Source: Lophium mytilinum | Taxonomy: Eukaryota | Assembly: GCA_010093605.1 (NCBI GenBank) | Contig: MU004199.1 | Span: 434,001 to 498,000 of the forward strand | Length of the DNA stretch: 64,000 nucleotides | Direction of reading: 5' to 3' | In this document: positions 1,960-45,661 of the stretch, piece by piece | Position numbering within the stretch: position 1 is the stretch's first letter | How the letters are laid out: the number at the start of each line of letters is the position of its first letter | Notes under the pieces: generated by a model | The model's input: only the letters and a program-made list of their open reading frames with translations | What the model was told of the DNA's origin: nothing | Databases searched by the model: none | Program-made: the position numbers and the translations under genes

Positions 1960-2880
1960 ATGCCTTCGTTTCCCCCTTTTGCTGTGCTGGATGCTTGCGG
2001 TCATGAAGGTGTATGTGACTGCCTCGATTCCCTGGATTACGCCAACGAGACCCCCGTGGAGCGAAAGCAGAGGATGTGGATCCACCACGCTGGAAAAGCT
2101 CTTCAGAGCTGGTACGCGGCGTATGCCGAAAGGGTTTACAACTTCGAGATCGAGGTTGTCGAGGCAGCCGGCGAAGTGCTACACGTACATGGAATCGTAC
2201 AGCCAATCGGCACCGCCAAGGCTCTGCCGGCATGGTTCCCAGAGCAGGAGAGGTTGCGGGTGCTGATGTTCCAGCAATGTAACTTGTCACTGGGGATAAC
2301 GCGAGGGGTCGTACGGCTGTTTGAAGGTAAGTAGGAGAGGCTCATTGACTGCCATAATGCTAATTTGCGGTTCTCAGACTCCTACGACTCTCCCCTCACG
2401 CATGTCGGTATCCTCCGCGTCCAATCTCCCGAATTCGAACGGTACGTAGCCCTCCACCCCAGTTGTGGCATGGTAATTCAGAACAGTGACACCGACCACG
2501 TTTCCTGGATAATGGTGACAAAGGATGGCACGGAATACGTACAAGACATCACCGGTGCTCAAGTTGGACTTGAGGCCGTAACGTACCTCAGGGATGATTA
2601 CTTGAGCAGCAAGTGCGTTAGCGCTTGGAAAGCACGGGAATTTCCCGCCGATGCCGAGTGTGAGGCCTTAGTAGAAGCTGCCATCAAGGGGGACGAGCTT
2701 CAGCTCTTTCACGCACACGCTGGTCAACGATTTTTCGAAATTGTGAAGGCGTTCATGCACGAGGAGCAGGGGTTTCTGCACCTTGAAAATGGCGACTTCG
2801 AAGAAGCACTCGTCAAGTCCACCACTCGAGTCTGGGACGGCATGGGCCTGTACATGGCTAGCCTCCCGACTAACGTCTGA
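1960..2880 (+). CDS. Cys-His-Asp transglutaminase/papain-like fold protein, paralog 1 (~289 aa, 2 exons)
   Basis: ORFs 1960..2334 and 2365..2880 join via a phase-1 intron at 2327-2377 (GTAAGT...GCTAAT...CAG). Motifs: MFQQC, DHVSWIM, YVQDITGAQVG. The function is inferred from the motif pattern only. Confidence 0.75.
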
Positions 2881-3142
2881 CCAAAGCCTCCTCGCACCTA
2901 TGTCTGGTTCGTTGGGGACGTCTACGCTACACAGAGCTTCGCTCGTCATTGTGGAGAAGTTTGCAGCCGTCACCTGCTTATGGCCCTTTGACTGAGCGAT
3001 TCCTTTTGGTGCAGGTTAACCAATCCCTTTCCGTCATGGTTAGGGGGCCACTAACAGTGTATCCGGTACGGCGGCTCTACCTGTTGTGGTCCATAATAGT
3101 ATGAGCCTTGTGCTGGTCTATTAAGGGCTTCTTTCTACGGAA
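2810..3142. repeat. Copy A of an inverted dispersed duplication (partner at ~58774-59096)
   Basis: The reverse complement of 3142 leftwards (ttccgtagaaagaagcccttaatagaccagcacaa...) aligns to 58774 onwards. It is near-identical for ~90 bp, then identity decays. Confidence 0.9.
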
Positions 3143-4112
3143 GCGTCTTGTCCAAGGCGCATCTGAACCACGGAACGATTCAAGCGGCTTATACGGACTT
3201 GTTTCCAGCATTCCGAAGGTACGGTAGCCCCTCACACCTATCCATTATTTCCGGCAACTAGTGTAATGTATATGAGGCATAGTTTCTAATCATAGGATTT
3301 CAATGCCCAAGTCATTGCTCAATTTTTAGTAGACCACATTTCAATGGCATTCTTCTTTCCTATTATCAACCTTTCCGTTTCTTTGAAGGCCCTCACGCCC
3401 AATTCGGAATATCAAAGGCCAATGTAAAGATCTTCGAGGTGCGTTTGAGGACCTAGACAGGAATGCTCCCTCCAGGAGGCAATATCTAGCAGTAGGCCCG
3501 AGAGTCTTCAAAACAAGGAGAAATTAGGTATGTTTCATCCACAAGTTCGAACTTTACGGCGGTGCTTATGACATCTTCCTCCATCAAAAAATAATAGGCA
3601 TGAGAGGCTTCGAATGTGCCGCACTAATGCCAGCAGGCACGGAAGATCCGCACGGATTTGCGCGCTGTGAAATATCACGTTCCAGATGAGCTCTTACGAT
3701 GCAATGACCAGGATTGTACCCTGGGTTTGTGACATCCACTTTCGCTCATTCTGCATAGGCGTGAAGGCCCATAGGTGCGCCGGACATCCTTCAAGGTGGT
3801 TGCACAGTTTGCTTAACCTGCCCCCATTAGAAAGTAGGTACGAGATGAGAGCATCCCATCACGTGCTCTGCATTGCGCTTTCATGATTATTACATGTACG
3901 TTTGATGAAGATCAATGGTTGTGGCTAGATCACAGGTGAGGATAAGAATTAAACTTAATAACCATTCGAATTAGGCTACCTCATGTTCTAGGATAATCTG
4001 CAACCTCCAGGGGTATCTCAAAGCATTTCCTGTCCCCTCAAACCGCCACTCTTGCACTCATGTATCGAAGGCCCACGCCCAAGAATCGAGTCCCCTGCTC
4101 CTTTTCTCCACC

Positions 4113-4676
4113 TCACATAAAGGGCTCACAAAAGCTGTCAAAATCGTCCTGCGAGACACCCCTCCCCACCCAGTCTTCCGCCTTTTGATTGAAGATGCTA
4201 GTCTCGCATGTTGGGCACTGATTCTTCGCACAAACCACCCAGAAGCGCAGGCACGCCTCGTGGAAAACATGCTGGCACTTCAAGATCCTCACTGCGCTTT
4301 CGTCGCCTGGCTTGCGGATTGTCGGGCCCCAGCGCTCGCAGAGGCGGCACCATTCGCCCAGACCGGCTTTGACGCGTATGACGCCGTTGTCGAAGAATTC
4401 GATCGGGGTGTCGGATGATTCGGGGGCGGTGGGCTCCTCCAGGGTCAGGATTGTTGTGCAGAGTGGGCAATTCTTGTCGGTGGCGAGCCATTTCTTGAGG
4501 CAGTCAAGGTGGTAGATATGCTTGCAAAGGATAGTGAGGACCGCACCGCCGGCGTCCTTGGCTGCCTGCGCACCGGTGCGCTTGCATAGGCTGCAGGTGG
4601 GGCCGAGATCTTCCGAGCAGGCGCGCACTCCAGACTTGGGGGCTTCGGCGGGCGCGGTCACCGTAGTGTCAGCCAT
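4113..4676 (-). CDS. Small protein with two RING-H2 fingers (putative E3 ubiquitin ligase)
   Basis: Likely start MADTT at 4676. Two C3H2C3 motifs: CSLC...CKHIYHLDC...CPLC and CRLC...CQHVFHEAC...CPTC. Intronless. Confidence 0.8.
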   Translation of the reverse strand: MADTTVTAPAEAPKSGVRACSEDLGPTCSLCKRTGAQAAKDAGGAVLTILCKHIYHLDCLKKWLATDKNCPLCTTILTLEEPTAPESSDTPIEFFDNGVIRVKAGLGEWCRLCERWGPTIRKPGDESAVRILKCQHVFHEACLRFWVVCAKNQCPTCETSIFNQKAEDWVGRGVSQDDFDSFCEPFM

Positions 4677-5059
4677 CGTGAGTTGGTCGGGAGGGTCGAG
4701 GGTGGAGAGTGGTGCCGGTTGGAACGGGTGTTGTGACACGAGAGGAGAGGGTGGTTGGTGTTCGGAGAGTGGAAGGAAGAGTGGAGTAGAAGGTCCAAGT
4801 AGTGGATTGTGAAGTAACTGTTGTATCTGGAGGGGGTGGGACGGAGTGAAGTGGTAAGGCCTGCGGTTGAAGATATGGGAAAACATCAACGCACAATGTA
4901 CCGGCGGCCGTTCGATTCGCAAATCGGCTTATCGATGACGGTAGTATACAACATAAAGTCCCGCGACATAAGTTTGGGCACTCTTATACCGCTGCGTGGG
5001 GTGTACCTATGGGCTTTCAATCTTTCAAGAGCGATGTCAAGGTCGATGCAGGGGAAAGT

Positions 5060-5700
5060 AGGCTGCCTTTTGACTGCCCATATACCTACTGACTGGGCTA
5101 ACCTCCACGGCGGTGTCTAGCAATCAGGTATAGTAGCCGGACAGTCCTATATTACGGCGCTCAGACTTGTGCCCAATACTGTACCTAGATGTGGGGGTAC
5201 CAATTCATACGTTTGGGCACTCTTTACCAATGCTAGAGGGACCGCGAACTGCTTTGGAAACTCTAAATACAAGGTAATAGTCCACCCAGTGGAAAACAAA
5301 CAAGCTTTTGATTATCTGATGCCATGTGGCCTAGGGCACCCCCTACAGTGGTGTTGAGAGAGCAAAAGTGAAGGTAGAGCCGTGGCGTATCCATGGGCCC
5401 GAATTATGACTTGAAATATAATGCAACGAGCAACGCAGTGGATATACTACAAGCTCTTGATTATTTAATTTCATGCGCCCCAGGGCAACCCTGACGGTGG
5501 TGTGAAGAAAGCAAAGGTGAAGCTAGAGCCGGGGTTTATATGCGTGCCTAAATCAATGAGTTGAAATGTAATACAAAGATCAGCCAACTGGAAATTAGGA
5601 TAGCTTTTGACCAACTAAAATTTCATTGCCTAGGACACTCCTCACGGTGGTTTCGAGAGTGCAGATGGTAACGGAGTAGCAGCAAGTTTGTGGCAGCGGT
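5060..5700 (+). repeat. Degenerate ~150-bp tandem array (3 regular units plus one displaced unit)
   Basis: Anchors tagggcacccctacagtggtg (5332), cagggcaaccctgacggtggtg (5481) and taggacactcctcacggtggtt (5631) give spacings of 149 and 150. A further copy lies at ~5066-5130. Confidence 0.8.
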
Positions 5701-6019
5701 CTTGATGTAGTCGTGAAACTCGGGGGTAAATGTCAGATAAAGCACATCACCAGTCGGAGCAGCATTACTAAGACCGCGTCAAAAAGGCAAGGAAACCAGT
5801 CACACATGAGTAATAAACAAAGTCGCTCTTGTAGAAAGTTTCATTGAATCAAGAGAACTCTAATATCTAGTTGTTCTGATACGAATCGGCCATATCAGAG
5901 CTATGGAAAGAAGAAAAGGTTATTGCAACTTGTGCTTCTTGAACCATCTAAGAACGCTATAATGTCCCAAGAAAGACCACAAAGGGCAGCCAAAAGGAAG
6001 TGGAAAGTTCAAGATAAGT

Positions 6020-7354
6020 TCACAAATTCTCGTCCTCCGCTTCTTCATCATCCTCCTCGTCAAAGAAGTAGAAGGGTTCCAGCTCTCGTAATTCATCGGC
6101 TATGCCCCCGAGAAGTTGGTGCTGAGGATTTTGCCTTGAGAAGCTTTGGTAGTGATTGTTGTAGTACTCATACTGGAAGACGGTGAAGCGGCGAGGCTGG
6201 CTGTGGGGGTCTGTGTACTCATGATGCACGGCATGGTCCCTGGATGCGGAGCCCTCATCTTCCCCTTCTTCATCATCCTCCCCCTCGGGGCCTATGTATT
6301 CATGATGCACAGTTTGACCATCATCGTCCCCTGATGCGGAGCCCTCGTCTTCAGAGGAAACCTCCACTTCTTCAAACCTGAACACCTCTTCCCGTTCTTC
6401 GCCTTCCAGTAGATACTCATCGTCTTCCCAAACAACCTCGCTCCCTAGCGTTTCGAAACGCTGGAGCCACTCAGCGTGGCCATGGGCTACTTCAACTTCG
6501 ATGCACTGTACCAAGGGAATGAAAGACAGCTTCAATGCGCACATCTGAAGCCCGAACCATGACGCAACGCAAACAATATACTTGATCCGGCGGAGCTCTT
6601 TCGCCCTAGCAGTCCGAGCCTTCCTAGCCCTACGAGTAGGACCCAGAAGATCGTTTATATGCTTATCTACCCTGTGTTCCATGTAGCGATGTAGCCATTC
6701 CCACGGGTATGACTCATACTGAAATTCTAGTAGCATGTCGCGCATCTTGCCAATGAGCGTACCAGCATCACAGTACTGGTTAGCCAAGATGGCCCGGCTG
6801 TCCGAAAAATCGGCGAACGCGAGGACGAGGTCGTAGATCTGCCCAGTGATCATCTCGATGAAGACCGGGATCTCTACTTGGAGGTAGGAGCCGATAGTGA
6901 TACCGGACAGTTCGAACAGGCTTCGGCTCTCGAAGGCCTCGCGGCGGGCGGTTATGGTGCTTTTCTTGGAATAGTAAACCCGACGGCACAGCGGGCAGGT
7001 TGTTTTACCTACGAAATGAGCTTTGGCGCACGCGATGTGGAAGGAGTGCTCGCAAGGGAGGGTAATCGGATAGCCGCCCATGATGTGGGTTGCGAAGGGG
7101 AGTTCGGGGAGGATTGCCGATTCTTCATCTTCTTCTTGCATGTTTAAGTCGTCCAGGCAGATCGCGCAGGTTGTGCCCGGAGATGCTTCTAGATTGGTCG
7201 CGGGTGGTAAGCCGTCCAAGGCCTCCAGCCATTCCTTGCGCGTCGGTAACGCAGGTGGAGTCAAGGACTGCTTGTCAATTCGGTGTAGTACGCCTTCAGA
7301 CATACCGTAGAGGCCACTGTGAACATAGTAGGTTCGGGAAGAGGTACCCTGCAT
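6020..7354 (-). CDS. RING-H2 protein, tandem paralog A (RING + unrecognised helical domain + acidic tail)
   Basis: Likely start MQGTSS at 7354. CAIC...CEHSFHIAC...CPLC, then the shared motifs ARREAFE, LSFIPL and DDEYLL, then a D/E-rich tail. Confidence 0.85.
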   Translation of the reverse strand: MQGTSSRTYYVHSGLYGMSEGVLHRIDKQSLTPPALPTRKEWLEALDGLPPATNLEASPGTTCAICLDDLNMQEEDEESAILPELPFATHIMGGYPITLPCEHSFHIACAKAHFVGKTTCPLCRRVYYSKKSTITARREAFESRSLFELSGITIGSYLQVEIPVFIEMITGQIYDLVLAFADFSDSRAILANQYCDAGTLIGKMRDMLLEFQYESYPWEWLHRYMEHRVDKHINDLLGPTRRARKARTARAKELRRIKYIVCVASWFGLQMCALKLSFIPLVQCIEVEVAHGHAEWLQRFETLGSEVVWEDDEYLLEGEEREEVFRFEEVEVSSEDEGSASGDDDGQTVHHEYIGPEGEDDEEGEDEGSASRDHAVHHEYTDPHSQPRRFTVFQYEYYNNHYQSFSRQNPQHQLLGGIADELRELEPFYFFDEEDDEEAEDENL

Positions 7355-8013
7355 GGTAGAGGTAAGTTGTGTGTCTGGAGTTTGTGGTCTGCTTGGTGTA
7401 GTGATTTCTGGAAAGTGAGTGTGTTTTCGGAGGAAATGATAGCTACGGTAGGACTCTTTATTCATCCTGGAGTGAATCAGAACTGTCAATTGTTGAATAA
7501 CAATGTATTCGGACAATAAGGCAACTCATATCCTTCCCCTTTAGCTTCCAAAGTTGCATTCTTCACTGAGTACAAAGTTTGCGTGTGTACAATGCCTGAT
7601 CTACATGCGAATTTCTTGGCTTAATGTTACCGAGATGCGTTTCTTTCCCACAACTACGCTTTCCGAACTGACTTGGTGGCTTTTTATCCGCGCTAGACCT
7701 GGAAATTGTCACAAGATGTGAAGTGAGAGAAGCGCGGAACGGGTAAGGGAGTTTTGATCACTCTTCTACTGGATTATTACACGGCGACAAGAAATAACAG
7801 GACTTACGATGCATTTTGGAGGGTTGTTTCTAGAGAATGGAACTTTGTTGAAGCTAAGAGAAAAAGGAAGGAATGAAGCAATCTAGTCTAATACTTATGA
7901 GAAAGTCAAAACGGTGGGACACACGATTGCAATTTAGTCTTCAGAGAAACATGTTAAGCGTGACCTGCTCGAGTATCCAGCGGCCACGGAAAATGGAGTT
8001 TTCGTCAGAGCTA

Positions 8014-9576
8014 TTAGTCTTCGAGGTCCATTTCATCCTCGAGATCAGTCTCATCATCGGTATCCATTTCATCTTCCACATCCGTTTTATCTTCGAGAGT
8101 TTCATCTTCGTGATTTTCATCTTCGTGATTTTCATCTGGAAAATGAACCTCGTCGAGATGAATGCCCGCTTGGGCCGCCCGGCTGCGAATCGTTTCAATT
8201 ACGCGCAATGCGTAAGCTTGTAGCTCCTGGCGATATTGTCCTGGGTTTGCAGCCGCCTGTTCAAGCAGTGCATGCCATTCCTGACGCAGTCTCCTGTATT
8301 CGGCCCTTTGCTCTTCGTCATCTCGCTCAAGGAGTACCTCGGTGGTGGGAAGATCTCCATCTTGCTCCATTCCGAGTGCGGTCAAAAGACGTCGCAGCTC
8401 ATTGCGCAGTCGCTCGAAAGCCGCCTCTTCGTACTGGCTCAAGGATCCCGGATTCATGTTCTGGCGATCCAGAAGCCCTCGGTATTGTTGGTACAGCACC
8501 TCATAGCGCCCCATCCACGTATAGCGATCTTCAATTTCGCCTTCGTCATCCTCAACCTCGTCGTCAATATCCATTAGGTCTTCGTCGTCCTCTGGCTCCA
8601 AGAGGTATTCATCGTCGAAGAGAACGGTTTCGGAGCCAAACGGTCCACCGCGATCGAAATGGGACGGCCACCCACACCCGCGTTCGAGTTGATATTCCTT
8701 GATCTTCAGATAAGGAATAAAAGTCTGCTTCAGCAGTGAGATCTTGACACCAAGCCACACCGCTTGCAGCACGATCCGTTCGACGTGTCGAATATCCTTC
8801 CTCCAAGGTGCCCATTCCGTCTTAACTCGCATGAACGGGGTTAGCCCCCGGTTGACATACTTTTGCACTACTTTGCACAAGCCGCGTGCGACCTCGCCCA
8901 TTGGTCGTCCCAGGCTGTACCGATAGTCATAGAGATGGTTGTTGATGACATGCATGATGTCAGAGATTCGATCATACTCATCAGGGTAGGTGACTAGGTT
9001 TACCCGCCCGTGGACTTCCGCCATGACTTGCACCATGTTGGAGATCTCGTGGACGATCAACGCCCGGAAACAGCGCATTGGTGCGTCATCAGGGATGGTA
9101 ATGGCGCGAATTTGCCGGAGGTTCATCCGCTCGAAGGCTTCGCGACGGGCTTGGATGGTGCCATTTCGAGCCTCCACTTCCCAGAACTCCTTCCTGCAAA
9201 GAGGACAGCATCCCTTAGAAACAAAGTGCGCTTTGATGCAGCCAATGTGGAACTTGTGGCTGCACGGGAGAGTCACTGGGTAGCCTCCTTCCATATTGGT
9301 GTTGTCTGCGAATGGGAGCTCGGCGAAGATTGTGGCTTCCGCTTGGACTTCGACTGCCGCCGTTTTGAGGTCCTCGAGGCAGACCATGCACGTCCTATCC
9401 TCGTCTGGAATCTCGTCTATGTTGACGATTGCAGGAAGCTCATCCAAGGTTTCTTGCCAGGCTTCTTGGGTTGGCAGACGCTTTAGGTCTGAAGGTTCGC
9501 TAGGAACTGCATCTCGTCTATACTTGTACAAGCCGCTGTAGGTGTAGCGCTCTCGCAACGGGATAGTTGGCACCAT
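8014..9576 (-). CDS. RING-H2 protein, tandem paralog B
   Basis: Likely start MVPTIP at 9576. CMVC...CSHKFHIGC...CPLC, then ARREAFE, LKQTFIP and DDEYLL, then an acidic/coiled-coil tail with DENHE repeats. Confidence 0.85.
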   Translation of the reverse strand: MVPTIPLRERYTYSGLYKYRRDAVPSEPSDLKRLPTQEAWQETLDELPAIVNIDEIPDEDRTCMVCLEDLKTAAVEVQAEATIFAELPFADNTNMEGGYPVTLPCSHKFHIGCIKAHFVSKGCCPLCRKEFWEVEARNGTIQARREAFERMNLRQIRAITIPDDAPMRCFRALIVHEISNMVQVMAEVHGRVNLVTYPDEYDRISDIMHVINNHLYDYRYSLGRPMGEVARGLCKVVQKYVNRGLTPFMRVKTEWAPWRKDIRHVERIVLQAVWLGVKISLLKQTFIPYLKIKEYQLERGCGWPSHFDRGGPFGSETVLFDDEYLLEPEDDEDLMDIDDEVEDDEGEIEDRYTWMGRYEVLYQQYRGLLDRQNMNPGSLSQYEEAAFERLRNELRRLLTALGMEQDGDLPTTEVLLERDDEEQRAEYRRLRQEWHALLEQAAANPGQYRQELQAYALRVIETIRSRAAQAGIHLDEVHFPDENHEDENHEDETLEDKTDVEDEMDTDDETDLEDEMDLED

Positions 9577-10204
9577 CGTTGGAAAGCCGACTTTGTGATG
9601 GGATTCCTGTATTCTGTTTGGTAAGTGCTTAGATGATAAGTGGTTTGGTTGGTTGTTGTGCGGGATGTTGATTTCGAGTCTTTCGAGCTGGACTTCAGCT
9701 CGTTTTATGTCCTCCATTTGCCTGAATTGTCACATCACTTTCCCGAATTTCGAAGTTGTACAGTCACTTTCACCTTAACTTTCTGGAATTACATGCATTT
9801 GCTCATTCATGGTGAATCAAGCGTGCAGCTTACATTGTTCATGGACAATTCACGAACCTGGACGGCTGCCCTGATTCTCCCATTTACGTATCATGACACG
9901 GGCGTTTGTACTGCAGAATGATTAGCTAGAGTAGACAGAACAAAGTTTTGAACTCCTCGTGGCCTATGTACGGAGCTCAAGATATGGAGACAATACATTC
10001 CTGTTGGGTTTCCCGGGCTGCCCTTACCTTGGCGGCTTCTCGGACAAAGGAATTAAGGGCGAGGCAAAGCTTGAACGAGTAAACATAATGGAACGGTTTT
10101 CAGTGCACGGGGATTGATGATTTTCGATTGGGGGGTAAGGGTTTCATTGCAGCTACAGCACTTACAAAAGAATGGATGCACGTTCATACGTGCTCACAGA
10201 GACT

Positions 10205-11173
10205 TCAGAGCAGATATTCCACGTCGTACATCACCGTGCTGCTGCCGATCGTCTCATTGTGTACCCATCCTTCTGGCCACGGATTGCCCATCATGATTTC
10301 GAATTCCCGAATCTCGAGCAATGGGATGAACGTCTGCTTCAAGAGGCAGACTTTAAGCCCCATCCAAGCTGCATCCAGGATAATAATTTGAAGGCGTCGG
10401 ATATCTTGTGCCCAGGCCGGTATCTTCCACCTGGGTTGGTCTGCAAGCTCGACCACATAGTCGTCGACGATTGCCGCGATTAGAGCGTACGCCTGGGTGT
10501 ATTTGCAGCCGAGCTGGTTGCCATGCTTGAAGAGTACCAAGTGGATTGTCTTGCAAAGATCCACTACGGGCATGTCATCGTTGTACATGAGGTCTGACCG
10601 GCCTTGTAGCTCTGCAAAAAGGTACATGAAGTGCCAGAGATGCATGGTGATCATTCCACAGAACGACCCAATCCATCCCGAGTCCTCGTGGTAGGCGTCA
10701 ATTGGTAGAACGCCGATCTCTTGAAGGTTGAGCTGCTCAAAGGCCTCTCGACGTGCCTCTAGGGTGCCCAGCTTGCGCTCATATAGGTAGTCTTTGCGGC
10801 ATAGTGGGCACGAGGTCTGGCTGCGAAAGTGTTCCTTAATGCAGTTAACGTGGAAGCTATGCTTGGTCTCGCAAGTTAGGCTTACCGGACGACCTCCCAT
10901 CTTGGGTTCCGCAAAAGGGAGTTCCGCGAGTAGTTCAAGGCCTTCTTCAGGCGGGCTTTCGTCTGTGTTCGCCAAATGTTCGAGGCAAATGACACAGATC
11001 CTATGCTGTGCAGGAATGTCCTCCGGGGCCACATCAGGGAAGTTATCCAAAGTCTGCAGCCAGTCATCTCGCGATGGAAGACGACCTGGAACTGCCTGCA
11101 CGGGTCTCAGAGTGGCGTCCATTGCCGTCAAGCCACCGAACATGTGGTAGTCTCGGAGGGTTGGCCTCGCCAT
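10205..11173 (-). CDS. RING-H2 protein, tandem paralog C (lacks the acidic tail)
   Basis: 322-aa ORF with CVIC...CETKHSFHVNC...CPLC, ARREAFE and LKQTFIP. It ends exactly at YDVEYLL*. Confidence 0.85.
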   Translation of the reverse strand: MARPTLRDYHMFGGLTAMDATLRPVQAVPGRLPSRDDWLQTLDNFPDVAPEDIPAQHRICVICLEHLANTDESPPEEGLELLAELPFAEPKMGGRPVSLTCETKHSFHVNCIKEHFRSQTSCPLCRKDYLYERKLGTLEARREAFEQLNLQEIGVLPIDAYHEDSGWIGSFCGMITMHLWHFMYLFAELQGRSDLMYNDDMPVVDLCKTIHLVLFKHGNQLGCKYTQAYALIAAIVDDYVVELADQPRWKIPAWAQDIRRLQIIILDAAWMGLKVCLLKQTFIPLLEIREFEIMMGNPWPEGWVHNETIGSSTVMYDVEYLL

Positions 11174-11799
11174 GTCGTGCTATTGCTGTTGTTATTGCCG
11201 ATCAAGTAAGTTCTGGGGGCCGAACGAATGGATATTTGTGCTTAAGAATTCTCTGAGGGACTTGGTGGAAAGAGCGGGGTTGCGGCTTCATCGATTGGGA
11301 CATGAGGTAGGTAGATTTATGGACCTCAGCCTACATTGGTCTACAACAATTGTCCAAGCATCCTCGACTTACACCTCGCCTTCACAGTTAACATTGCAGC
11401 TTACACTGTGTAATACATGTGCCATACACAATGAGTGGCCTGACTCAAGTCCCATAGACCCAGCAGAATATGTGGTGTAATAGTACGGGCGTAGGTACCG
11501 TCCCCACGGATGGCGACCGAAGCGCAAGTGTCGTTTGTCGACTTAACGAGATTGCTACCGAGACAGACATCGCGATGAGTCGAGTATAGACTGTATAGAG
11601 GGAGTTTAGGGGAGTTTAGGGGTGTTTATAGGATTTAGACGTGTGCGTAAAGATGAGTGAGTTGATGCAAGAACTAATGCATTGAGCCATCTTCCAGGCA
11701 ACGTAGAATTTAAACATAGATGCGATGAAACCGTAGCTTGCGAACGAAGTTACCTTGATTTGATCCCGATCCCTTGGGAGAACGTCGGAGAGTCCTCGA

Positions 11800-12971
11800 T
11801 CACAGACACTGCGAGTAGAAGTCGCTTGACTTCGTGCATGTCGAACCACTCGCACAAATCGTGCATCCGCTGTACGTACTACCTCCGCACTGGCCGAATT
11901 TCACGACTGCTGCGCACGCGGCTGCTGAGCTCGCCACTGCGGCCGCCGAACTTGACTTCACCGCCGTTGCGAGCGTTGTATGAGCTGCTGAAGAGGCGGC
12001 ACCACCTGTACCCCCAGTACCCGCACCACCGTTGCCAGCACCACTGCCCGGCCACACGGATGGTCCGGGGATAGTGTATGTAGTTGCAGTCATAGCGGAC
12101 GGGGAGTCGATGTTGAAGTCTAGACCAGGGTCGCTGGCGCTGTAGGCACCGGGGAAAGCAACAAGGTAGGAGGAGTCGGGCGAGGCGGTACCGGCGCCTG
12201 TCACGATGAGTTGAGCGCATTCGGGATAGACTATGTTGTCATTGTTAGCAGATGTAGGTATGAGGTTATGATAGGATGAGCACGGACGTTGTGGGTTGTT
12301 TGCTTGATGGACAGCGATCAGTTCATGCCGGATGAGGTATTCGCCTGGAGTAAGAGATGCGGGGACTGTCGTCGTCCAGTTCAGGGTATCTGTGATTTGG
12401 TCGCCAGCCCATATGCCAGCATTTTGGGTGCCGCTTATCAGGCCGGCTTGATCGATTTTGAACTGGGCTAGATTAGAGATCGGTTATGGCATTGGAGGGA
12501 TGCATACAAACCCAGACGGTTCCGGAGCCATCCCAAGAGTTGCAGCCCGCAGCTGGACATTTCGCTAGATAGACAAGCACGGAGGCAGGCCTATGTGTCC
12601 ACTGCGTCCAGTGCGCGAGTATTGTATCTCCTGCTTTGACGGTTGCGGAGACGCCGGTTCCAGTTAGGCCAGGGTTGTTGCATCTGAGGTTTACAGTCGT
12701 GAGGTCGGCAAGAAGAAGCGGGTTGTATCCGGGGTATTGGCGCTCGATGGATACCTGGCCGTCAGCTGAGTTGTAGGGTTGCCAACTGAAGAGATATTAG
12801 CTAGTGTTAAAGTAGAAAGGCGAGGGAGCGGAGGAACGAAGACAGAAGAACACAAGAGATGACGTACCCATCGTACTCCTTTCCCTCCATTGTGTAAACC
12901 CCAACGCCGCCATGCGCACTTGCTAGGCTCACCAGTGCCGCAATAGTCGCGAACGCAAGGCGGAGGACCAT
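11800..12971 (-). CDS. AA9 (GH61) lytic polysaccharide monooxygenase with C-terminal CBM1
   Basis: Signal peptide MVLRLAFATIAALVSLASA followed by an N-terminal His (HGGV). Motifs WTHRPA, GEYLIRHELIAVHQANNPQ and YPECAQL, then a G/A/S/T linker and CBM1 (GQCGGSTYSGCTICASGSTCTKSSDFYSQCL). Three short introns. Confidence 0.95.
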
Positions 12972-15455
12972 GATGGCAGTTTTTGAGTCGTGACTATTGT
13001 AGGTTCTACTTATTTGTTTCCTTCCTTGGTCGTTGACCTAATGAACTAAGAATTGTATGGAAAGTAAAGACTCAAAGGCAGAAGTCCAACTCGGAAGCAA
13101 ATCGTCCAAGAGCTCAGGTTCCAAGCCTGTTTATATACCTCCAAGCACCCGTTGTTCACCTCGGCTGACGTTCAAAAATTGAATCTACCCGTGATGCACC
13201 CCGGGTATTGGCGTCGCGTTTCCCAGCCTGAAACGTCCCTTGGCATCAAAGCTTCGCGCCCAACTACCGACAGGTCCCGGGTTTGATTATTCTCCAGGAA
13301 CCATCTAGTCAAGCTTTCAGCATACCACTATATGGCGGGCGACTTTCCACCAGGGGCGTCCAATAAGGTTCTCGAAGTGTGAGGCATGGAACGGCGAATC
13401 AGTCGGTCCGGCGGGCGAGGTTTCCGGCAGGGATGAGAGGCGAGATGAAGAAGCCGGGGTCACGATGTGCGGAGGTGTGATCTCCGCGTAGTTTCGGATG
13501 CGCTTGGGAGGGCGATGATGGAGAAGAGTCAGCACCAGAGGTAGTGGTGTATGGGATGTATAACAAAGTGTCTTTGGTATATTGTTTAGTATGAAGAGGA
13601 TTTGTAGTGAATTGTGCTTAAATTCGTCCATGAAGCGTGAGGAAAACCCGAAAGTAACAAACCCTTACCATGAGAGTACAAACGTCTGTGTGACTTACCT
13701 GAGCTCCAAGTTTCTCGCCAGCTACAGCAAAATTCTTGTCCTCGACAGGCGTTGAATGCAAACATGAAACAGGTGCGGGAGTAAGAATCTTGCGTCGGGA
13801 TACGGACCGTTTCTAATATAAACACCATATATTGCGGGGCACCCACCACTCAATATCCCAGACGCCTCTCAGACGACCACTTCATCTCGCGTTCATCAGT
13901 CTCCCATGCCAATAGCGGAAAATCGATATCATGAAACGTGGCAAAGGCCGGAAAAACCTGGAGACGTGTATCGGGCTCTGATAGACAAGTTGTGCGCCTA
14001 GTCCTGCGTCCATAAAGTTTGTTGGCAATTGCGAAGCAGCTCCGGTAGACTTATCACAACCCGGAGAGCCACCTCTAGGTCTTTGGCAAGTCCCTAGATC
14101 GAAACTGTCAGGTAGCCTCTCTCTAGCTCGGTGGCCGTAGACTTGTTGGCCTTAATGTAGATAGGCTGGGGGTGCAGGATGCCCATGAATCTCCGCAGCT
14201 CGCTACCGGGCCAGGTGCTCTTATAGACAATATCAATGGTGTTAAGGTTAATGCGGGTGTAGTGTGCGCATGTCTAGACCTAAAGGTGGCGGATATTCTA
14301 GTTCTTTGGGGCCGGGAAGCCTAGTTCGTCCGCTAGAAGCCAGATTTTGGCAAGAAATATGGACAGGACGTCTGGCGCGTTCTTGGTCTTCTCAAAGCGG
14401 TCGTGCTTGTAGAGCCACTTCACAAGCACTCCTAGGGTCTGTTAATCTTTGTCTAGAAGCCTAGCGTATATTGTATTCATAAGCGCGTTTTTCTGAGGTC
14501 ATCAAAGGCTGCAATGATGACGGGGACGCGGAAGGCTGCTGGCGTCGCTCGAGACGCGAAAGTCGATCGAGTCCCATCCGCAGTGGCCACTTATCGATCT
14601 CAATCGCATCTCTCAGGACTCCTTGAGATGAGGAGCAACTTATCGAAGCCTGATTGATGAAGTATCGTGGTAGATGACAGCAAGGGCTTTCGGATGTTGG
14701 TAGGCGGGACGCATAGTTTTGCGCCCTCTTAACGAGTTATTTTGAATCCCTCTTCTTTCGTCCAATCTCTTAACTCGCACTTGGAAGAGTGGCCGGGCCG
14801 AATCCTCGAATCGTGCTCTGGTGCATCGTCTTGAAAGCTTACGCATAAGGTCATGTAGGCCCCAAGGACGGCGGCGTGAATCGGATGGGATACACGTGCG
14901 GATGCATGTAGAAGTGAGTGCTCAGAAGAAGCCCTCTGATTCCTCCGGCCCCAGATAGAAGGTGGTGAATGCATAGGGTGGAGGGGTGGAGATACACTCG
15001 AAAAGGGGCGGGGGTAGTTTTCCTGCCCTAGAAAGCAGTGACGGGCTTTGAGCAGACGTCAAAAGACAATTGAGCGAAGAATAGTGGCTCAAGAGATGCG
15101 AATAAGGCCAAAATCGGTGTCAAGGTAGATGAGGATGTAGATAAGTAAGGCAGGGAGGATCGTGAGGCGCTGGTTGGTGTTGAGCTAGCCCCCCCGGGAT
15201 CGGCGGTCGGCGGAATTAATCAGTGATGATGCTGCCATCCGGGCTCGGCAAAGACGCGCGACGATAATCAGACTCGACTTCTTCGCCTCTCCAACTTCAC
15301 CACCACCACCCTCCTCTGCATTGCCCTCTCTGCACACAGCCATCTCCTGTGCAGAAGGCGTCCCCTCTTTCTTCAAGGCCAACGAGGCAGCCGAGATCCT
15401 CACGACACCGGGTTTCTCTTGCCACCCCCGGCCAGATTTCAAATCATCCTTCAGC

Positions 15456-18400
15456 ATGCTCTGCGGCCAGCGACAAACATGGCGGGCAGCTCTGCAGCAC
15501 GCATCGCGGACCTCATATAGACAGCAGCTTTCATCCTCATCACCGGTGCACTGCGCTCGTCGCCTATATAGCATTTCTCCGGCCCAGTACTCGACTCCCT
15601 TGGAGCGGTGCCGCCTCGTACCCTCGAGCCTCAACAACACACGCAACTTCTCCTCGAGCGCGACATGGCGGAAGGACAAGTCAACCAAGCCACCGCCAGA
15701 TGTCCCAGAGTCTGACGAGGTCAAGGAGGCAGAGGAAGATGGGAAGGACAACACAGAGCCAGAGGCCAGGGAGCGCAAGGACTTGGAGAAGAGCACTGAT
15801 GCCAAAAGCAAGACCCCAGATCCGATTCCTTCGTCAAAGTCTGCCGAGGGCAAGAGTGCAACAGCTGGAGGCAATGGTGCTGAGTCTGGTGCTACTGGAG
15901 AAGGCGGCGCAAAGCGGCGGAGGGCAGCAGCCGACAAAGCAGTCGCCAAACCATCACCTCCCGAAGTCTATCCACAAGTCATGGCCATTCCAATCACAAA
16001 GCGTCCCATGTTTCCGGGTTTCTACAAAGCCATCACCATCAAGAATCGCGAGGTAGCAAAGGCCTTGTCGGATATGATGAGCAGAGGACAACCATACATT
16101 GGAGCTTTCATGTTCAAGGATGACAACGCGGACAAGGACACAATCAACAGTCCGGATGAGATCTACGACGTCGGCACTTTCTGCCAAATCACCAGTCTCT
16201 TCACTGTCCCGGCGGGCCAAAACAGCGAAGCGGCGACTACAGCAGTCCTCTACCCTCACCGGCGAATCAAGATGACATCTCTGATTAAGCCGAACTACAC
16301 TGGCTCGAAGGAGGGTGATACTAGCAAGGTTGAAGTTGCCGCGATTAAGGCGACATTGGAAGAGTCGACGGAGAAGGCACAGGATGAACCGGCAGAGGAG
16401 AAGAAGCCAGAGTCAGAGGATAACAAGGGCGACGTTGTTGCAAGCTTCGAAGAGACTGCCGCAGACTCGCAGAAGTTGGAGAAGCCAGACTTCTACTACG
16501 AGCCGACAGCTTTCCTTCGAGAACGGCCAGTGACTCTCATCAATGTGGAGAACATCCCGGAGCAGCCATACGAGAGGACCAACATGCAGATCCGTGCTCT
16601 TGTCAGCGAGATTGTCAACACCTTCAAGGAGGTAGCTAACCTCAACAATCTCTTCCGCGACCAGGTGTCAGCATTCAGCAACAGTCAGAACTCGGGCAAT
16701 GTCGGAGAGGAGCCTGGAAAGCTAGCAGATTTCGCAGCATCAGTCGCACAGGCTGAATCTGCCGAGCTACAGGAGATCATGGACGAAGAAGACATGCAGA
16801 CCCGTCTCACCAAGGCTCTCACTGCATTGAAGAAGGAGCTCATGAATGCTCAGCTGCAGAAGAAGATCGTATCGGATGTCGAGAGCAAGATCCACAAGAA
16901 ACAGCGAGAATACTGGCTGATGGAGCAGATGAAGGGCATCAAGCGCGAGCTTGGTCTGGAGTCTGATGGAAAGGAGAAACTGATTCAGACTTTCCAGGAG
17001 AAGGCCAATCGACTATCCATGCCCGAGGCGGTCAAGAAGGTGTTCGACGAGGAGCTCAGCAAGCTCGCACACTTGGAACAAGCCGCATCAGAGTTCAACG
17101 TCACTCGCAATTACCTCGACTGGCTCACACAGATGCCATGGGGTCAACGTAGCGCTGAGAATTTCGGAATCAAGCATGCCATGACCGTTCTCGACGAAGA
17201 TCACTACGGACTCAAGGACGTCAAGGATCGGATTCTGGAATTCATCGCCGTCGGTAAGCTCCGTGGCACTGTCGAGGGTAAGATTCTTTGCATGGTCGGA
17301 CCTCCAGGTGTTGGCAAAACAAGTATCGGCAAGTCGATTGCGAGGGCTCTCGGCAGGCAGTACTACAGGTTCAGTGTAGGTGGCCTTGCTGATGTAGCTG
17401 AGATCAAGGGACACCGGAGAACCTATGTCGGTGCCTTGCCAGGAAGAATCATTCAAGCTCTCAAGAAGGTCCAAACTGAGAATCCACTCATTCTCATTGA
17501 TGAAGTCGACAAAATCGGCAAGGTAGCACATCCTCAACCCCTGCGCCGTCACCCTTTACTAAACATTCGTCAGGGCCACAACGGAGATCCATCATCCGCA
17601 CTGCTGGAACTCCTCGATCCCGAGCAGAACAATTCTTTCCTTGACCACTACATGGACGTCCCAGTGGATCTGTCCAAGGTACTGTTTGTGTGTACGGCTA
17701 ACATGACTGATACCATTCCTCGCCCGCTATTGGACCGCATGGAATTGATTGAGCTCTCTGGATACGTCGCCGACGAAAAGATGGCTATCGCTGACCGATA
17801 TCTTGCTCCCGCTGCCAAACAGCTCAGCGGGCTCGACGGTGTTGACGTACAGCTCGAAAACTCCGCCATCGTGGAACTGATCAACAAGTACTGCCGTGAA
17901 AGCGGTGTCCGAAACCTCAAGAAGCAAATCGAGAAGGTATACCGGAAAGCGTCGTTGAAGATCGTACAGGACATTGGCGAAGACGACGTTCTCTCAGAAG
18001 CCAAGGCCTTGACAGAGGAAGGTAAGGCCGCACAAGAGGAAGCTGCGAAAGACGAGACCGACGTGAACGAAACATCCCAAAACATCGCCAACGAGACTAC
18101 CGAGATTCCCCGCATCGCTCTGAAGGTTCCCGACTCCGTCCATGTATCCATCACCAAAGACAACCTCGCAGACTACGTCGGCCCTCCCGTCTTCACCTCG
18201 GACCGCATCTACGAGACCACCCCTCCCGGAGTCGCAATGGGTCTCGCCTGGACCCAGATGGGCGGCGCCGCTCTCTACGTCGAATCCATCATCGAGAACG
18301 CCCTCTCGTACTCCTCCCACCCGGGCCTCCAGCAAACCGGCAACCTCCGCCCCGTCATGAAGGAATCCGTCTCCATCGCCTACAGCTTCGCCAAAGGCGT

Positions 18401-18963
18401 CATCGCACGCGACTTCCCCAAGAACCGCTTCTTCGAGCACGCCCGCGTCCACCTGCACTGCCCGGAAGGCGCCGTGCCCAAAGACGGCCCGAGCGCTGGC
18501 ATCACTATGGCCACGAGCCTGCTCAGCCTCGCCATCAACGAGCCCCTCGACCCAACCATCGCCATGACCGGCGAGCTGACCGTTACGGGGAAGGTGCTGC
18601 GGATTGGTGGGCTGCGGGAGAAGACGGTCGCGGCGAGACGTGCTGGCGCTAAGATGATCATCTTCCCAGAGGATAATCTTAGCGACTGGCTGGAGTTGCC
18701 TGAGGTAAGCCTGAAGACTTTCAACCCCCTATCAGAGCCTGCAAACTAACACATAATAGAACATCAAAGCCGGCATCGCGGGCAAGCCTGTGGGCTGGTA
18801 CCGCGACGTTTTCGGCCTCGTGTTCCCGGGCCTGGATCGCGAGGCCGCGAACGCGCTGTGGAAGAAGGAGCTGAAGAAGCCCAAGGGGGCTTCTGCCCGG
18901 AAAGCGCTCCCGCAGCAGCAGGGGGAGGAGGCGGAGGTTGAGGAGGCGGAGGAGGAGGATTAG
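15456..18963 (+). CDS. PIM1: Mitochondrial Lon protease (Pim1/LonP1 homolog)
   Basis: Arg/Ser-rich presequence from the ATG at 15456. Walker A GPPGVGKTS, Walker B LIDEVDK, catalytic PKDGPSAG Ser and IGGLREK Lys. Introns at 17523-17573 and 18705-18759; stop at 18961-18963. Confidence 0.97.
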
Positions 18964-19179
18964 GTGGGTGGGTGGGTGAGGGGAGAGGGGTGTGGATGGG
19001 AGAGGAGAGCTTTGTATAATAGATAATGAGCCTAAATGGCAGCCGCTGTGGCGGCGGTTTTGACAACTGCATAGCACTGGCGTTGCCGCCCCTGGCCGGT
19101 GCGGGGGCGGTGTAGGTGGGGCTTGTATATAGCCTGGTTTGGGCCCCCCCAGGAGTGGGGGGAATAGGAATCATGCTTC

Positions 19180-20520
19180 TCTCTATTTGATTTTGATGTG
19201 TGGATGATGCTGTAAGGGATGTACGCTTGGGTCCTTAGGCTGCGAATGGCGATGTCAAAGGCTGGAGGTCTTGATTTGGGGAGGTGTATACCAGAATTTT
19301 TATTCGAGTCCTTATCACTCTCTATAGCGAGTGGCGTAGATATTATACATCTCCTGGTACACTTTTGATGTGCTGGTGACGCTGTGAGGGGTGTACATTG
19401 GGGTGTTTAGACTGTGGGCAGGATGTCAACGTTTGAAAGGCGTGATTTAGGGAAGAGTACACTAGGCTTTTGCGTTAAGAGCTAATTACTTTCCGTAGCG
19501 AGTAGCGTAGATAAGATGTATATCTGAGTACGCTTTGAACGTGCTGGTGACGCTGTAAGGGGTGGTCCTTTGGGTGGTTATGCTGTGAGGAGGATGTCAA
19601 GGGCTCGAGGACGTGAATCGTTACGGTGAAGAATGGAGTGTTGATAAAAGCCCACATTACTCTCCCGATGCTAGTGGCACAGATATAAAGAGGTTTCTAG
19701 TTGGCTTTTGATGTGCTAATGACGCTGTAAGGGGTGGTCCTTCGGGTGGTCAGGCTGCGAGGAGGATGTCAAGGGCTATATGAATTGGTACTGTGAAGGG
19801 GGGAGTCTTGATGAAAGCCTATATCCCTCTCTGTAGCAAGTAGCATAAATATTATGAGTCGGTCAAGAGGCGTTTGAGAAGCGGCTGGTGATGTTAGAGG
19901 TGCCCTAGAGTACTAAAGATCTTAAGGGGGGGATGTTAAGGGCTAGAGAACGTGATTCGGGGAGGTGTCAACTGAGATGTTGAATTAAGCTTTTATAGCT
20001 CAACACTGCGACTTCCGCAACTGTTTCCACTGTTCTGCTTCCCTCATGCCGCCGTTAGACTGGGCTCAACGTACCGTAAGTAATCAGGCAGTGATGTCAC
20101 GTTCCAAGACTTCTATACTAAGACTTGCTTGATCTTCCTTGACTTGGCCATGCATGGGCGGCCCCAGGGGCGATTAAGAGGGCCTGGGAGGACGTGAAAC
20201 GCACAGGAGCGTGATTCAAACTCTATCGCTCTCCGGAAACGAGGAGTAGAAAAGTTCTGCGTGTCTCAGTAGGCGTTTGATGTGTGGACAGTGATGTTAG
20301 AGGTACCCTGGAGTACTGAAGATTCCGAGGATAGGATGTCAAGGGCTGGAGGACGTGATTCGGGTAGTGTACGTTGGATTGCTAATTTGAGAGCTTATCA
20401 CTCTCCATAGGCGAGAGACCTAGAAATCATGCCTCTCTGAGTAGTGTTCTGATGCGGAGGTGGTGATGTTAGAGGTGCCCTCGTGCGTTTACTAACCGTA
20501 CAACGTAAAGATTTGAAGGG
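19180..20520. repeat. Degenerate ~172-bp tandem array (at least 7 units)
   Basis: The anchor ctgtRagggR recurs at 19210, 19382, 19553 and 19725 (spacings 172/171/172). The variant atgttagaggtRccc recurs at 19891, 20294 and 20466, and ggatgtcaagggct is also repeated. Confidence 0.85.
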
Positions 20521-43324: not shown

Positions 43325-43550
43325 TTACTCTCCCGCTTGGACCCCAACTTCCCCGCCGCCGGCGCGGACACCAGTCTCGTCGCGCAGGTCAGCGACATTC
43401 ATGCCAACCTTGCCGATGATAACACCCGCTTTCTTGTAAGACACTATGGCGCGCAAATTAAGGTATGACTCGACGTATTCTTCTTCGGTCCTGGACGTTG
43501 GATCGCCGTCCTGGCCATCACCAAGGCTGATCCGGCCTCCGCAGCCATCC
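43325..43550 (-). pseudogene. Isolated fragment of a KH-domain RNA-binding protein gene (Rnc1/Pbp2-like first KH domain)
   Basis: The minus frame reads RTEEEYVESYLNLRAIVSYKKAGVIIGKVGMNVADLRDETGVRAG. It is bounded by stops and has no start codon of its own. Confidence 0.75.
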
Positions 43551-43763
43551 TAGTAACTTCTCTTGCAGTGGCCGCTTCCTGGGAGGGGGAGGGATGGCGT
43601 TGGGCCCCGACCTCCGGCGGCTGAGTCGTTGTGGCTGTTGCACCCTTCCATGCGCGGCCACTGACTGTTCTCTAGCTGGCGCTGGCGAGGCTCGCAAGAT
43701 CTGCTCGTCCGCTTTGCTTAGTTCAGACTTGTCTTCAGCATCTTGCGAGCGGGTTTTTGGCAT
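43518..43763 (-). CDS. Short basic orphan ORF (MPKTRSQ...), possibly the 5' part of a decayed chimeric gene
   Basis: Good Kozak context (GCCACCATG), 81 aa. It overlaps the KH fragment in a different frame. Confidence 0.35.
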   Translation of the reverse strand: MPKTRSQDAEDKSELSKADEQILRASPAPAREQSVAAHGRVQQPQRLSRRRSGPNAIPPPPRKRPLQEKLLGWLRRPDQPW

Positions 43764-44833
43764 GGTGGCGGGCTTGGTGGTGGTGTGGTGGGTATGCGCG
43801 GGTAGTGTTGATGGCGATGGTAGGGTGCTGAGTCTGTATGGGCGTTCGCTGAAGCGTCGTCAGGGTCTATGGCGTTTGGCTGGCGTGCGGTGGAGCTTGA
43901 GTTGAAGTTGAAGGGGGTATTGAGGTTGCTGATGTGGGGGAGCGGGCGGGAGCGGATGGGAGAAGCGACTATCTGGCTGGTGGGAGAGTCTGCTGGGTGG
44001 AAGAGTTGGGTTTAGGCGCGGTGGACGTTGGAACCTGCAAGAAGGGTGTAAAGGCCAGCGCTGTGAATGTCAAGTTGCACCTTGACCGAGCTGCCACGAA
44101 ATAGCGAGGTTACTCTTCGCTATGTTTTCGGTGGAGCGAGAGCCGCCTCATACCTCTTATCTATTCCCTTTCTCGCTACTCGGTACCGTTTACTACGCTC
44201 GCATGTATTCTTTCATTAGAAAGACTGTGCAATGCCGCCCAGTGGAGGACTGGTCCACGTGGGAGTGGTACAAGTCCCCAGAGACCTCGGAAAAATAGCC
44301 CGAACACACCTCCTATTTCATTATTAGGTAGGCTGGCTACACAAGGGACTCGAGCTGATTCTTAACGCAGGAATTGACACTTTCCTAGAGCTCTCACAAT
44401 TGCGTCATTGCTAATTGTTCTTGTGCCCTCTTCACTGGCGGTTCCTTAGCGAGAGGCCGTCCGTCGAGCCGTTGAGAATTTCGAGGAGTCCTTCTGTTAT
44501 TCTAAATCTTAACCCCAGGCAGGACTTTGAAGCCGGGTGGCAACTCTTCTATATTGAAGCTTTGCGTCTACAAATACTAAATCTATTTGACCCCGCTGCG
44601 AGGCACAAAAGGGCAACACTTGTATCGCCAGATGTCCCTAATTGTAGTTCTATCTCGAAATCTTCACCAGATGCTCAACAACCACCTTCACCATGCCTCA
44701 ACTTCACTATTCGTGACGTTTCTTCTGCTTTATATATCTCTCCGTAGCTATGATCGATAACTGACCAGCTTCCTCATTCCTCAGCGTTCATAGCGAAAGA
44801 TTCTTTACTGTCCATTTACTCATTCTCTACACA

Positions 44834-45661
44834 ATGGAAGACACCCCAGACAAGCGCGTGTTGTTGCGAGCATCCCGCGTAGTTCTTGCCTGGTTTTTGA
44901 TGATTTGCCAGAAGACTATGAACGTAGACGTTGAATTTGCCGTAGTGGACAGCGGTTTTGTCCATTCCTTCGGTCGCGAAGTCCCCCCCGGCGTTCGAAG
45001 ATTTGGAGTCCCCCTCGCCCTCGAACTGGACTGGAGATTGCACTTGGCGGTGATATGCGGCTGGAAATGCGACTTCGCGGTCTGCGTAATGGCTGGTGCG
45101 CTGATTTCGCTTCTCGGAGGTATGCAGTTATCCAAGACCATTGAAATCAAGCATAGCTAACGTTAGGTTTTAGGACACGTTCGGACCATCGAAGAGATCC
45201 ACGTCCGCCCAAACCCACGCTGGACGCCCCGCCAATGGTCCCAATTCGGCCTGAAAGACGGCTCGATCTACACCCACACGCTATTCCGCATCGAACTGCA
45301 TAACGGCGAGAAATGGGCCCTAGATCTGTCCGGTTTCCAGCACGGTTGGCGAGATGTCTTGACGCCGTGGGAGCACTTCTGTACCACCAGGATGAAGGAG
45401 GAGTGTTTCCGGCTGGCTAAGGTCGGAGACGAGCTCGCCGAGTGGACTGCCCTGGCCGCCGCATCTAAGCCGGATGCCTTCGGTGTTGAAGTAGACCGGA
45501 TTGTCCGTGAGGCCCTTCGAGCTTGTTTCGGCACCGACAACGACATCGCTAGAAACCGCGTATTTGATATGGCGCACGACGATGACTTTGATGACGTATT
45601 CAAATCGTGCCTCGAGACATTCGAGGATATTTTGGACCGCGAATTGCACCGGTGGTTTTAG
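44834..45661 (+). CDS. Cys-His-Asp transglutaminase/papain-like fold protein, paralog 2 (~257 aa, 2 exons)
   Basis: A phase-1 intron at 45120-45173 (GTATGC...GCTAAC...TAG) joins the two ORFs. Motifs GWKCDFAV, THTLFRIEL and EKWALDLSGFQHGW. Confidence 0.78.

Follow-up and report, generated by a model that had tools for sequence, protein, structure and literature searches.

A local array of MYND-less Cys-His-Asp proteins in Lophium mytilinum belongs to an unnamed Ascomycota family of predicted transglutaminase-like enzymes

A 64,000-nucleotide stretch of the 43.4-Mb Lophium mytilinum genome (contig MU004199.1, here C19, positions 434001-498000; the window in what follows, with features numbered from its first letter) holds two small genes, gene 1 (1960-2880) and gene 2 (44834-45661). 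Public records identical to both products are hypothetical proteins of L. mytilinum. An initial annotation of the window read them as two alignable paralogs of a transglutaminase- or papain-like enzyme, each adjacent to repeats, and proposed that they could edit ubiquitin together with RING genes beside gene 1. The locus raises the question of what these two proteins are, whether they are related, and whether their neighbours indicate what they do. In this analysis, both genes were found to belong to a real, widespread and unnamed Ascomycota enzyme family that pairs its domains in a new way and has expanded strikingly at this locus.

The gene structures proposed initially were reproduced, including the phase-1 introns 15 and 16 codons past the Cys and the positions of Cys, His and Asp, and identical public gene models exist. 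Gene 1 lies on the forward strand with exons at 1960-2326 (the same sequence as public model P0003) and 2378-2880, separated by a 51-nucleotide GT-AG intron in phase 1 (2327-2377) that begins 15 codons past Cys107, at a position found family-wide. Its first exon encodes a short Cys-rich N-terminus, possibly the relic of a MYND finger, followed by a long helix, a beta-hairpin and the predicted catalytic helix with Cys107 (codon 2278-2280). The second exon carries His163 (2497-2499), Asp179 (2545-2547), Gln184 (2560-2562) and the C-terminal helices, for a product of 289 residues. Gene 2, also on the forward strand, encodes 257 residues in exons at 44834-45119 (Cys79, codon 45068-45070; the same sequence as public model P0004) and 45174-45661 (His130, 45275-45277; Asp146, 45323-45325; Gln151, 45338-45340; C-terminal helices), around a 54-nucleotide GT-AG intron in phase 1 (45120-45173), 16 codons past Cys79. 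Both are real genes, their introns being predicted from the sequence in agreement with the public models. In one RNA run, compared with window positions 1-20000, spliced Lon and AA9 contigs were present and no contig lay over gene 1 or its intron, a result that counts neither way.

Kinship between the two proteins, which are 15% identical, became evident through profiles. Compared directly, they gave a blastp expectation value (E) of 1.9 and a Smith-Waterman score of 44, which was equalled by 65 of 2,000 shuffles; a significant pairwise alignment was rejected as chance level, and profile tests were used in its place. Beyond self-matches, word-based homolog searches with both proteins returned a single ortholog. 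A profile of 15 other paralogs from the array described below, built without gene 1, gene 2 and the close paralog of gene 1, scored 28.7 bits against gene 1 and 81.9 bits against gene 2, with shuffles reaching at most 3.1 and 3.9, respectively. A profile of 116 family matches from outside the array gave 92.9 and 113.4 bits, and the identical three unnamed Ascomycota clusters top the Atlas lists for both proteins. By these profile comparisons the homology is real, so that the initial claim of paralogy stands while the direct alignment offered for it does not.

The two genes are also not a pair, as a third paralog starts within the window and 15 more lie further upstream. Scanning 184 kb of the contig (C19:354-538 kb; 2,683 frames) with the family profiles recovered 18 MYND-less paralogs on both strands within approximately 107 kb. 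They fall into a group of three (372-385 kb), a core of 14 (408.5-436.9 kb) and, on its own at 479 kb, gene 2. Gene 1 is the final member of the 14-gene core, and the array extends upstream of the window. The third paralog, g433, occupies positions 1-241 of the reverse strand with its 5' part (start at 241) and runs out of the window into the upstream array; it is intronless, transcribed divergently from gene 1, 266 residues long, intact in its triad and 100% identical to public model P0009. When the 18 copies are compared together with a MYND-fused copy from contig C1, identities run from 12 to 46% (median 17%), and the Cys, His, Asp and start Met are the only invariant columns. The shared intron is present in 15 of the 18 genes and in the C1 copy; the remaining three are intronless. 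Sixteen of the 18 frames are open over roughly 250-300 residues, the exceptions being g427, with an in-frame stop, and g430, which is cut short or changes frame. Twelve of the array models agree with public models over their whole length, and g382 does so along its first 246 residues. Nonsynonymous differences (pN) were below synonymous differences (pS) in all five paralog pairs compared, with a ratio of nonsynonymous to synonymous divergence (dN/dS) of about 0.3-0.5 in four pairs and saturated dS in the fifth.

The array is old and under birth and death. In the sister genus, Mytilinidion resinicola has nine family records on one contig in a different order (KAF2805901-906, 909, 910, 917) and, on a separate contig, an ortholog of gene 2 that is 78% identical; overall, sister-genus counterparts of the array copies range from 47 to 78% identity. 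In a FastTree tree built from 142 rows, after removal of those with fewer than 170 filled columns (g429 and g430 among them), four groups were resolved, each containing both genera, with gene 1 and gene 2 in separate groups; deep support was weak. Counts across the whole genome are lower bounds, with further copies or pieces on at least contigs C16 and C4. The C16 copy (C16:498500-499700; public model P0132, which lacks the His) has a decayed MYND-like N-terminus and its His and Asp in different frames. Inside the array, a 369-codon open frame at C19:424061-425167 had no Pfam or family-profile match and could, by eye, be a copy that lost the triad.

A decayed copy was also detected within the window. 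The initial annotation placed a duplicate of the gene 1 3' end at 58.8 kb; such a copy exists, with the qualification that its well-conserved part corresponds to non-coding sequence, the 3' flank of gene 1 (2924-3142, forward strand), which is present once more in the genome as an inverted copy at 58774-58991 (reverse strand, 85% identical). The coding tail next to it, at 59000-59250 on the reverse strand, is what remains of a gene-1-type copy, interrupted by a stop and a frame change and detected at E 2e-4 by tblastn and at 5e-7 by profile, with a DNA score of 122.5 compared to a maximum of 100 in 200 shuffles. The flank copy is far better conserved than this adjoining remnant, and fainter similarity extends to approximately 59.9 kb. 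A low-depth contig from the RNA run matches 58774-58991 and its flank, and none covers gene 1.

Beyond these genomes, the family profile matched 1,170 representatives (at 50% identity) at E of at most 0.001, and 243 at 1e-10 or better; family features were taken from the best 150 of the 1,170. Named members are ascomycetes, and the Atlas clusters are 97-100% eukaryotic. Conservation was assessed in 137 rows outside the array models (11 of them from M. resinicola, and one being P0132), of which 127 retain the Cys, 134 the His and 134 the Asp; the whole triad is present in 122 of the 133 rows covering all three columns. The three residues are nearly invariant across the family and invariant within the array. 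Five residues past the Asp, a Gln is likewise kept in all 151 database rows compared and in 17 of the 18 array genes. In seven family rows the Cys is replaced by Ser, Ala, Gly or Asp. Such triad replacements in some members indicate that inactive or serine variants exist.

A zf-MYND finger was identified in 73 of the 136 family rows scanned against Pfam, and no family beyond MYND variants was found in these rows. Together with a template modelling (TM) score of 0.83 between Atlas models, this result supports the kinship with MYND-fused fungal proteins that had been noted initially. As first observed, gene 1 and gene 2 themselves lack the finger; Pfam gave none in either protein or in the other scanned array members, and C19 had no zf-MYND match among those listed in a genome-wide search. 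The stand-alone form probably arose through loss of the finger, since the closest outside relative of gene 1, P0075 (KAF2805917; triad positions Ser-His-Glu), has by eye a decayed finger, and since a few N-terminal Cys residues persist in gene 1, g372 and g414. Elsewhere in the genome, short MYND-finger frames are dense at C8:2123000-2134300 (nine matches in 11 kb) and at C3:16900-40500; the enzyme domain was not matched in these loci as scanned.

The local expansion is also not confined to this fungus. Metagenomic data yielded 57 loci with family members (33 once duplicates were merged), and 11 of these hold two to four copies; therefore, tandem growth is a trait of the family, for which the 18 copies described here are the largest case among the loci examined. 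A phase-1 donor-like GT 16 codons past the Cys column was present in 31 of 45 first-exon matches from the metagenome.

Searches of existing domain collections gave no name for this family. Pfam returned no family for gene 1 or gene 2 even at E up to 1 and 10, and NCBIfam holds no model for the domain. Transglut_core (PF01841) matched neither gene and was not among the 25 families listed for 130 members; Nt_Gln_amidase (PF09764) matched neither protein and nothing in this genome; and Tox-PLDMTX (PF15645) matched neither window gene, its cut-off was reached by none of the 130 members, and a search of this genome with it gave no match, as did its controls. Pattern scans for relatives in prokaryote genomes and viral contigs, which have limited sensitivity, produced 19 candidates each and none that was confirmed, and an equally limited tblastn search of plasmids found no relative. 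A 2023 census of papain-like proteins does not mention MYND in its main text and three supplement files, with its figures and other files possibly bearing on the point, and it describes the fungal families DUF6540 and DUF3525 differently from the present one (PMC10318531). No description of this family, with a MYND finger joined to a transglutaminase-like, papain-like or deamidase domain, was found among the listed results of full-text literature searches outside subscription papers. Overall, the family appears to be undescribed, the fold and triad themselves being known.

Structure prediction points to the papain/transglutaminase-like superfamily. AlphaFold2 models from 130-row alignments reached a predicted local distance difference test score (pLDDT) of 88.1 and a predicted TM score (pTM) of 0.89 for gene 1, and 88.6 and 0.88 for gene 2. 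In both models a helix opens with the Cys, the His sits in a strand, and the Asp comes directly behind the strand that follows, which matches the order expected of this superfamily, a Cys at a helix N-terminus followed by His and Asp on adjacent strands. Triad spacing over 155 family rows had medians of 53 (Cys-His) and 16 (His-Asp), with 56/16 in gene 1 and 51/16 in gene 2.

In the wide fold search, gene 1 retrieved 8z3i (Z 6.3; root-mean-square deviation (rmsd) 4.6 over 138 aligned residues), 2hly (6.3; 4.6, 158), 2zk9 (5.9), 3a54 (5.8), SseI (5.6; 3.2, 117) and NTAQ1 (5.5; 3.7, 125), with Ceg10, LapG, PMT, NAT1 and GdmF also within ranks 1-11; all 11 of these rows are thiol-protease-fold proteins. 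Foldseek likewise placed NTAQ1 first for gene 1, at E 0.019. For gene 2, the search returned 2hly (Z 7.5; rmsd 4.0, 153 aligned), 8z3i (6.6), LapG (6.1), SseI (6.0) and 2zk9, NTAQ1 and 3a54 (6.2), with NTAQ1 reaching up to 7.1 (rmsd 4.1, 125) in a second search. Thus, two proteins of such low identity retrieve the same set of fold neighbours, most of which belong to a cluster III characterized in the part of the census consulted as 'mostly deamidases/transglutaminases' (PMC10318531). The domain assignment of the initial annotation is supported by the invariant columns, the predicted secondary structure and the Z-scores of 5.5-7.5 to cluster III members. Among viral structures nothing was found at E 0.001, with a viral NTAQ1-like protein third at E 0.088.

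From these results, it is highly probable that the proteins are active enzymes of this fold. The two gene products would be soluble thiol enzymes that act inside the cell and belong to the transglutaminase-like branch of the papain superfamily; neither has a stretch hydrophobic enough to suggest a membrane helix, and a sequence scan made no export signal evident. The Cys at the helix start would attack an amide, activated by the His and Asp on adjacent strands, and the acyl-enzyme formed on the Cys would be resolved by water or by an amine, which is the established chemistry of the fold and is extended here to these proteins. In the common fungal form, the MYND finger at the N-terminus would serve to bring the enzyme to a partner, and in this lineage finger-less or finger-decayed copies would have multiplied by local duplication into an old array, of which genes 1 and 2 are two copies from different subfamilies. 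As to the reaction, the preferred reading is a substrate-specific, intracellular protein-glutamine deamidase or transamidase, to which we assign a probability of roughly 0.45. This reading is favoured because the nearest solved relatives of known reaction are mostly glutamine deamidases, the usual partner domain binds proteins and an export signal is not evident. Since only the catalytic residues are held fixed, each array copy probably has its own target or context. SseI illustrates how narrow the specificity of such enzymes can be: with generic substrates it is reported to have had no activity (PMC3498931), and a later study found that it deamidates a single Gln in Gi alpha subunits (PMC6107295). 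A bolder extension, which we consider unlikely, would see in ascomycetes a large and hitherto overlooked set of glutamine deamidases resembling SseI and NTAQ1 and directed to their targets by MYND fingers, with the array as a diversifying conflict arsenal (non-self recognition, antiviral or antimicrobial defence) making one Gln-to-Glu change per target.

Several observations weigh against this reading. A triad residue is lost in 11 of the 133 family matches, including P0075; the same fold also yields proteases (LapG, vasohibin) and acyltransferases; and unrelated helical bundles are interspersed in the gene 2 lists, where one of them takes first place. Foldseek with either model gave no match at E 0.001, and all Z-scores are below 8, the level the tool takes for a clear match, so that placement in the superfamily rests on consistency across matches. 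Sequence searches of the PDB with the domain gave nothing significant; proteins of the same fold appeared only as arylamine acyltransferases (E 1.5-1.8), and the other rows were MYND fingers or chance matches. Additionally, the correspondence of the family Gln to the Q of the Tox-PLDMTX signature is our assumption, for which confirmation was sought and not obtained. For scale, NTAQ1 itself is reported to score only Z 6.1-7.0 against its accepted relatives in the part of that study consulted (PMC4214742).

Among other explanations, the proteins could be specific proteases or isopeptidases of the LapG, vasohibin or pseudomurein endoisopeptidase type, cutting one partner brought by the MYND finger. 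The chemistry would be identical up to the leaving group, LapG (Z 5.0-6.1), vasohibin and PeiW/PeiP (both 3.7-4.4) are among the fold matches, and Peptidase_C71 and C39_2 clusters appear in the Atlas at TM of about 0.3; this possibility is nonetheless doubtful, as glutamine deamidases rank equal or higher with both models, although for gene 2 they stay within about 1 Z of LapG. A small-molecule acyltransferase or amide synthase resembling arylamine N-acetyltransferase, with the array serving a wood-dwelling fungus as a detoxification repertoire, is improbable. NAT and GdmF match at Z 3.6-4.4, NATs account for the same-fold PDB rows mentioned above, and the profile His and Asp align with those of arylamine N-acyltransferase (E 1.7), but these Z-scores are lower than those of the deamidases, the usual partner is a protein-binding finger, and no recurring metabolic cluster lies beside the 13 long loci. 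It is more improbable still that most array copies are silent and drifting, their triad kept by inertia, with the MYND-fused genes alone functional. The defects of g427 and g430 and the decayed 59-kb copy would fit such drift, but it is opposed by 16 of 18 frames that remain open with an intact triad at 17% median identity, by the dN/dS values of four pairs, and by the identity to sister-genus counterparts.

The view of the initial annotation, in which ubiquitin or ubiquitinated substrates would be edited by these enzymes in concert with neighbouring RING ligases, becomes a minor and highly improbable rival. Four RING-domain open reading frames (ORFs) do follow gene 1 (4116-11179, reverse strand), as annotated, and are probably unrelated context; three of them (6023-11179) look mutually paralogous with a long insert in the RING, and a homolog search with one gave no match. 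OspI, an E2 deamidase, shares the fold (Z 3.7; PMC10318531, consulted in part). An unrelated UQ_con gene lies near family members in two of the 13 long loci (L082:3250-4311 and L083:8478-8990, within 6 kb and about 1.4 kb, respectively), the two not being mutual orthologs, and a tandem run of three genes between the array members g372 and g382 (C19:375000-381000) has N-termini that by eye resemble F-boxes, but Pfam gives these genes no family. The functional tie itself found no support: gene 1 is the only copy bordering RING genes, the other 17 being approximately 5-66 kb away, and a RING pattern was found in none of the 57 metagenome loci (33 distinct, 282 kb in representatives). That pattern recovered all four window RINGs and missed one Pfam-found RING at 528 kb. 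Pfam detected no RING and no recurring partner in 84 neighbouring ORFs from the 13 loci of at least 8 kb (84 of 113 long frames, omitting one very long frame, exons of the family itself and frames on the strand opposite those exons), nor a RING or ubiquitin-binding fusion in any of 136 homologs. Because many metagenome loci are short, a fixed RING link is excluded and an occasional one is not. Deubiquitinases (USP, OTU, UCH, Josephin, ULP) gave no Pfam match and are absent from the listed fold neighbours, which are lists that cannot exclude one.

The repeats next to gene 2 probably represent unrelated context as well. A 108-bp array of 6.5 copies (45806-46505; longest frame at most 67 codons) begins 145 bp past the gene 2 stop and is followed by a 150-bp array of 2.6 copies (46614-47005) whose unit recurs on contigs C2, C8 and C23; both are non-coding, without a long frame, and no dinucleotide signal like that of repeat-induced point mutation was found in the 108-bp array. 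The initial association of paralogs with repeats therefore holds for gene 2 and does not generalize, as arrays of 107-177 bp units adjoin only three of the 18 copies (g382, g384 and gene 2) and none within the 14-gene core. Additional repeats include 171-177 bp arrays at C19:385.2-388.6 kb and, at 19191-20477 of the window, a non-coding-looking array of ~172-bp units, 68-73% alike, that was missed by Tandem Repeats Finder. Copies of a dispersed element, each some 40-90 bp long and 72-85% alike, were found near several genes of the region, at 923-1011, 47189-47277, 54431-54470 and C19:413.9 kb.

These findings suggest that many fungal 'MYND-type' proteins carry, behind the finger, a probable enzyme that is absent from Pfam and from the 2023 papain-like census as covered here. 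Enzymatic deamidation of protein glutamine is known mostly from bacterial effectors and NTAQ1; if the preferred deamidase reading is true, a large fungal family would be a new source of this reaction in eukaryotic cells. Should the enzymes turn out to cleave proteins or transfer acyl groups instead, a domain model and a name would still be required for the family. The array provides a ready test set of 16 open paralogs, each with its Cys control, that have diverged nearly everywhere outside the active site.

Comparison with known systems places the family closest to several glutamine deamidases. NTAQ1 (PF09764; 4w79, 3c9q) has the same triad order, and its spacing (Cys28/His81/Asp97; 53 and 16), taken from the part of the report consulted (PMC4214742), equals the family medians. 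It matches at Z 5.5-7.1 over approximately 125 residues and provides the top Foldseek rows for gene 1, whereas identity is about 10-13% and the present family adds C-terminal helices and the MYND fusion. NTAQ1 is presumably one conserved gene, in contrast to the many fast-changing copies described here. Protein-glutaminase of Chryseobacterium/Flavobacterium (Gln_deamidase_2, PF18626; 2zk9, 3a54, 8z3i) is the best or near-best match for both models, at Z 5.8-6.6 over 128-138 residues with the same triad order; it differs in its triad spacing (41 and 20), its bacterial origin, its structure solved with a pro-region and its identity of 8-12%.

The Tox-PLDMTX deamidases (PF15645; 4g29, 2ebf) match through SseI (Z 5.6-6.0) and the PMT C3 domain (Z 4.7), and their signature is listed as C, W, H, D, Q in the part of the source consulted (PMC3482391). 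In the present family C, H, D and Q are conserved, the commonest Trp column being filled in 76 of 151 rows, and Pfam matches to this model occur in the His-Asp-Gln segment of four of 130 members at E 0.06-0.18 (at best 13.8 bits compared to a cut-off of 26.1). The Gln of PMT and SseI presumably also lies five residues past the Asp. These proteins differ in a Cys-His spacing of 38-40 and in being delivered bacterial proteins, whereas the present family has no evident export signal. DUF2026/APC5867 (PF09641; 2hly), a bacterial protein of unknown function with 4-8% identity, gives the longest alignment, which takes in the C-terminal helices (153-158 residues; Z 6.3 and 7.5), and is described in the portion of the census consulted as carrying Ser where Cys is expected (PMC10318531). 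Lastly, the fungal entries named 'MYND-type domain-containing protein' have an annotation that covers the finger only, and the array copies lack this finger or retain a few of its Cys residues; with the TM score of 0.83 between Atlas models and the same intron position, these entries and the array genes belong to the same family.

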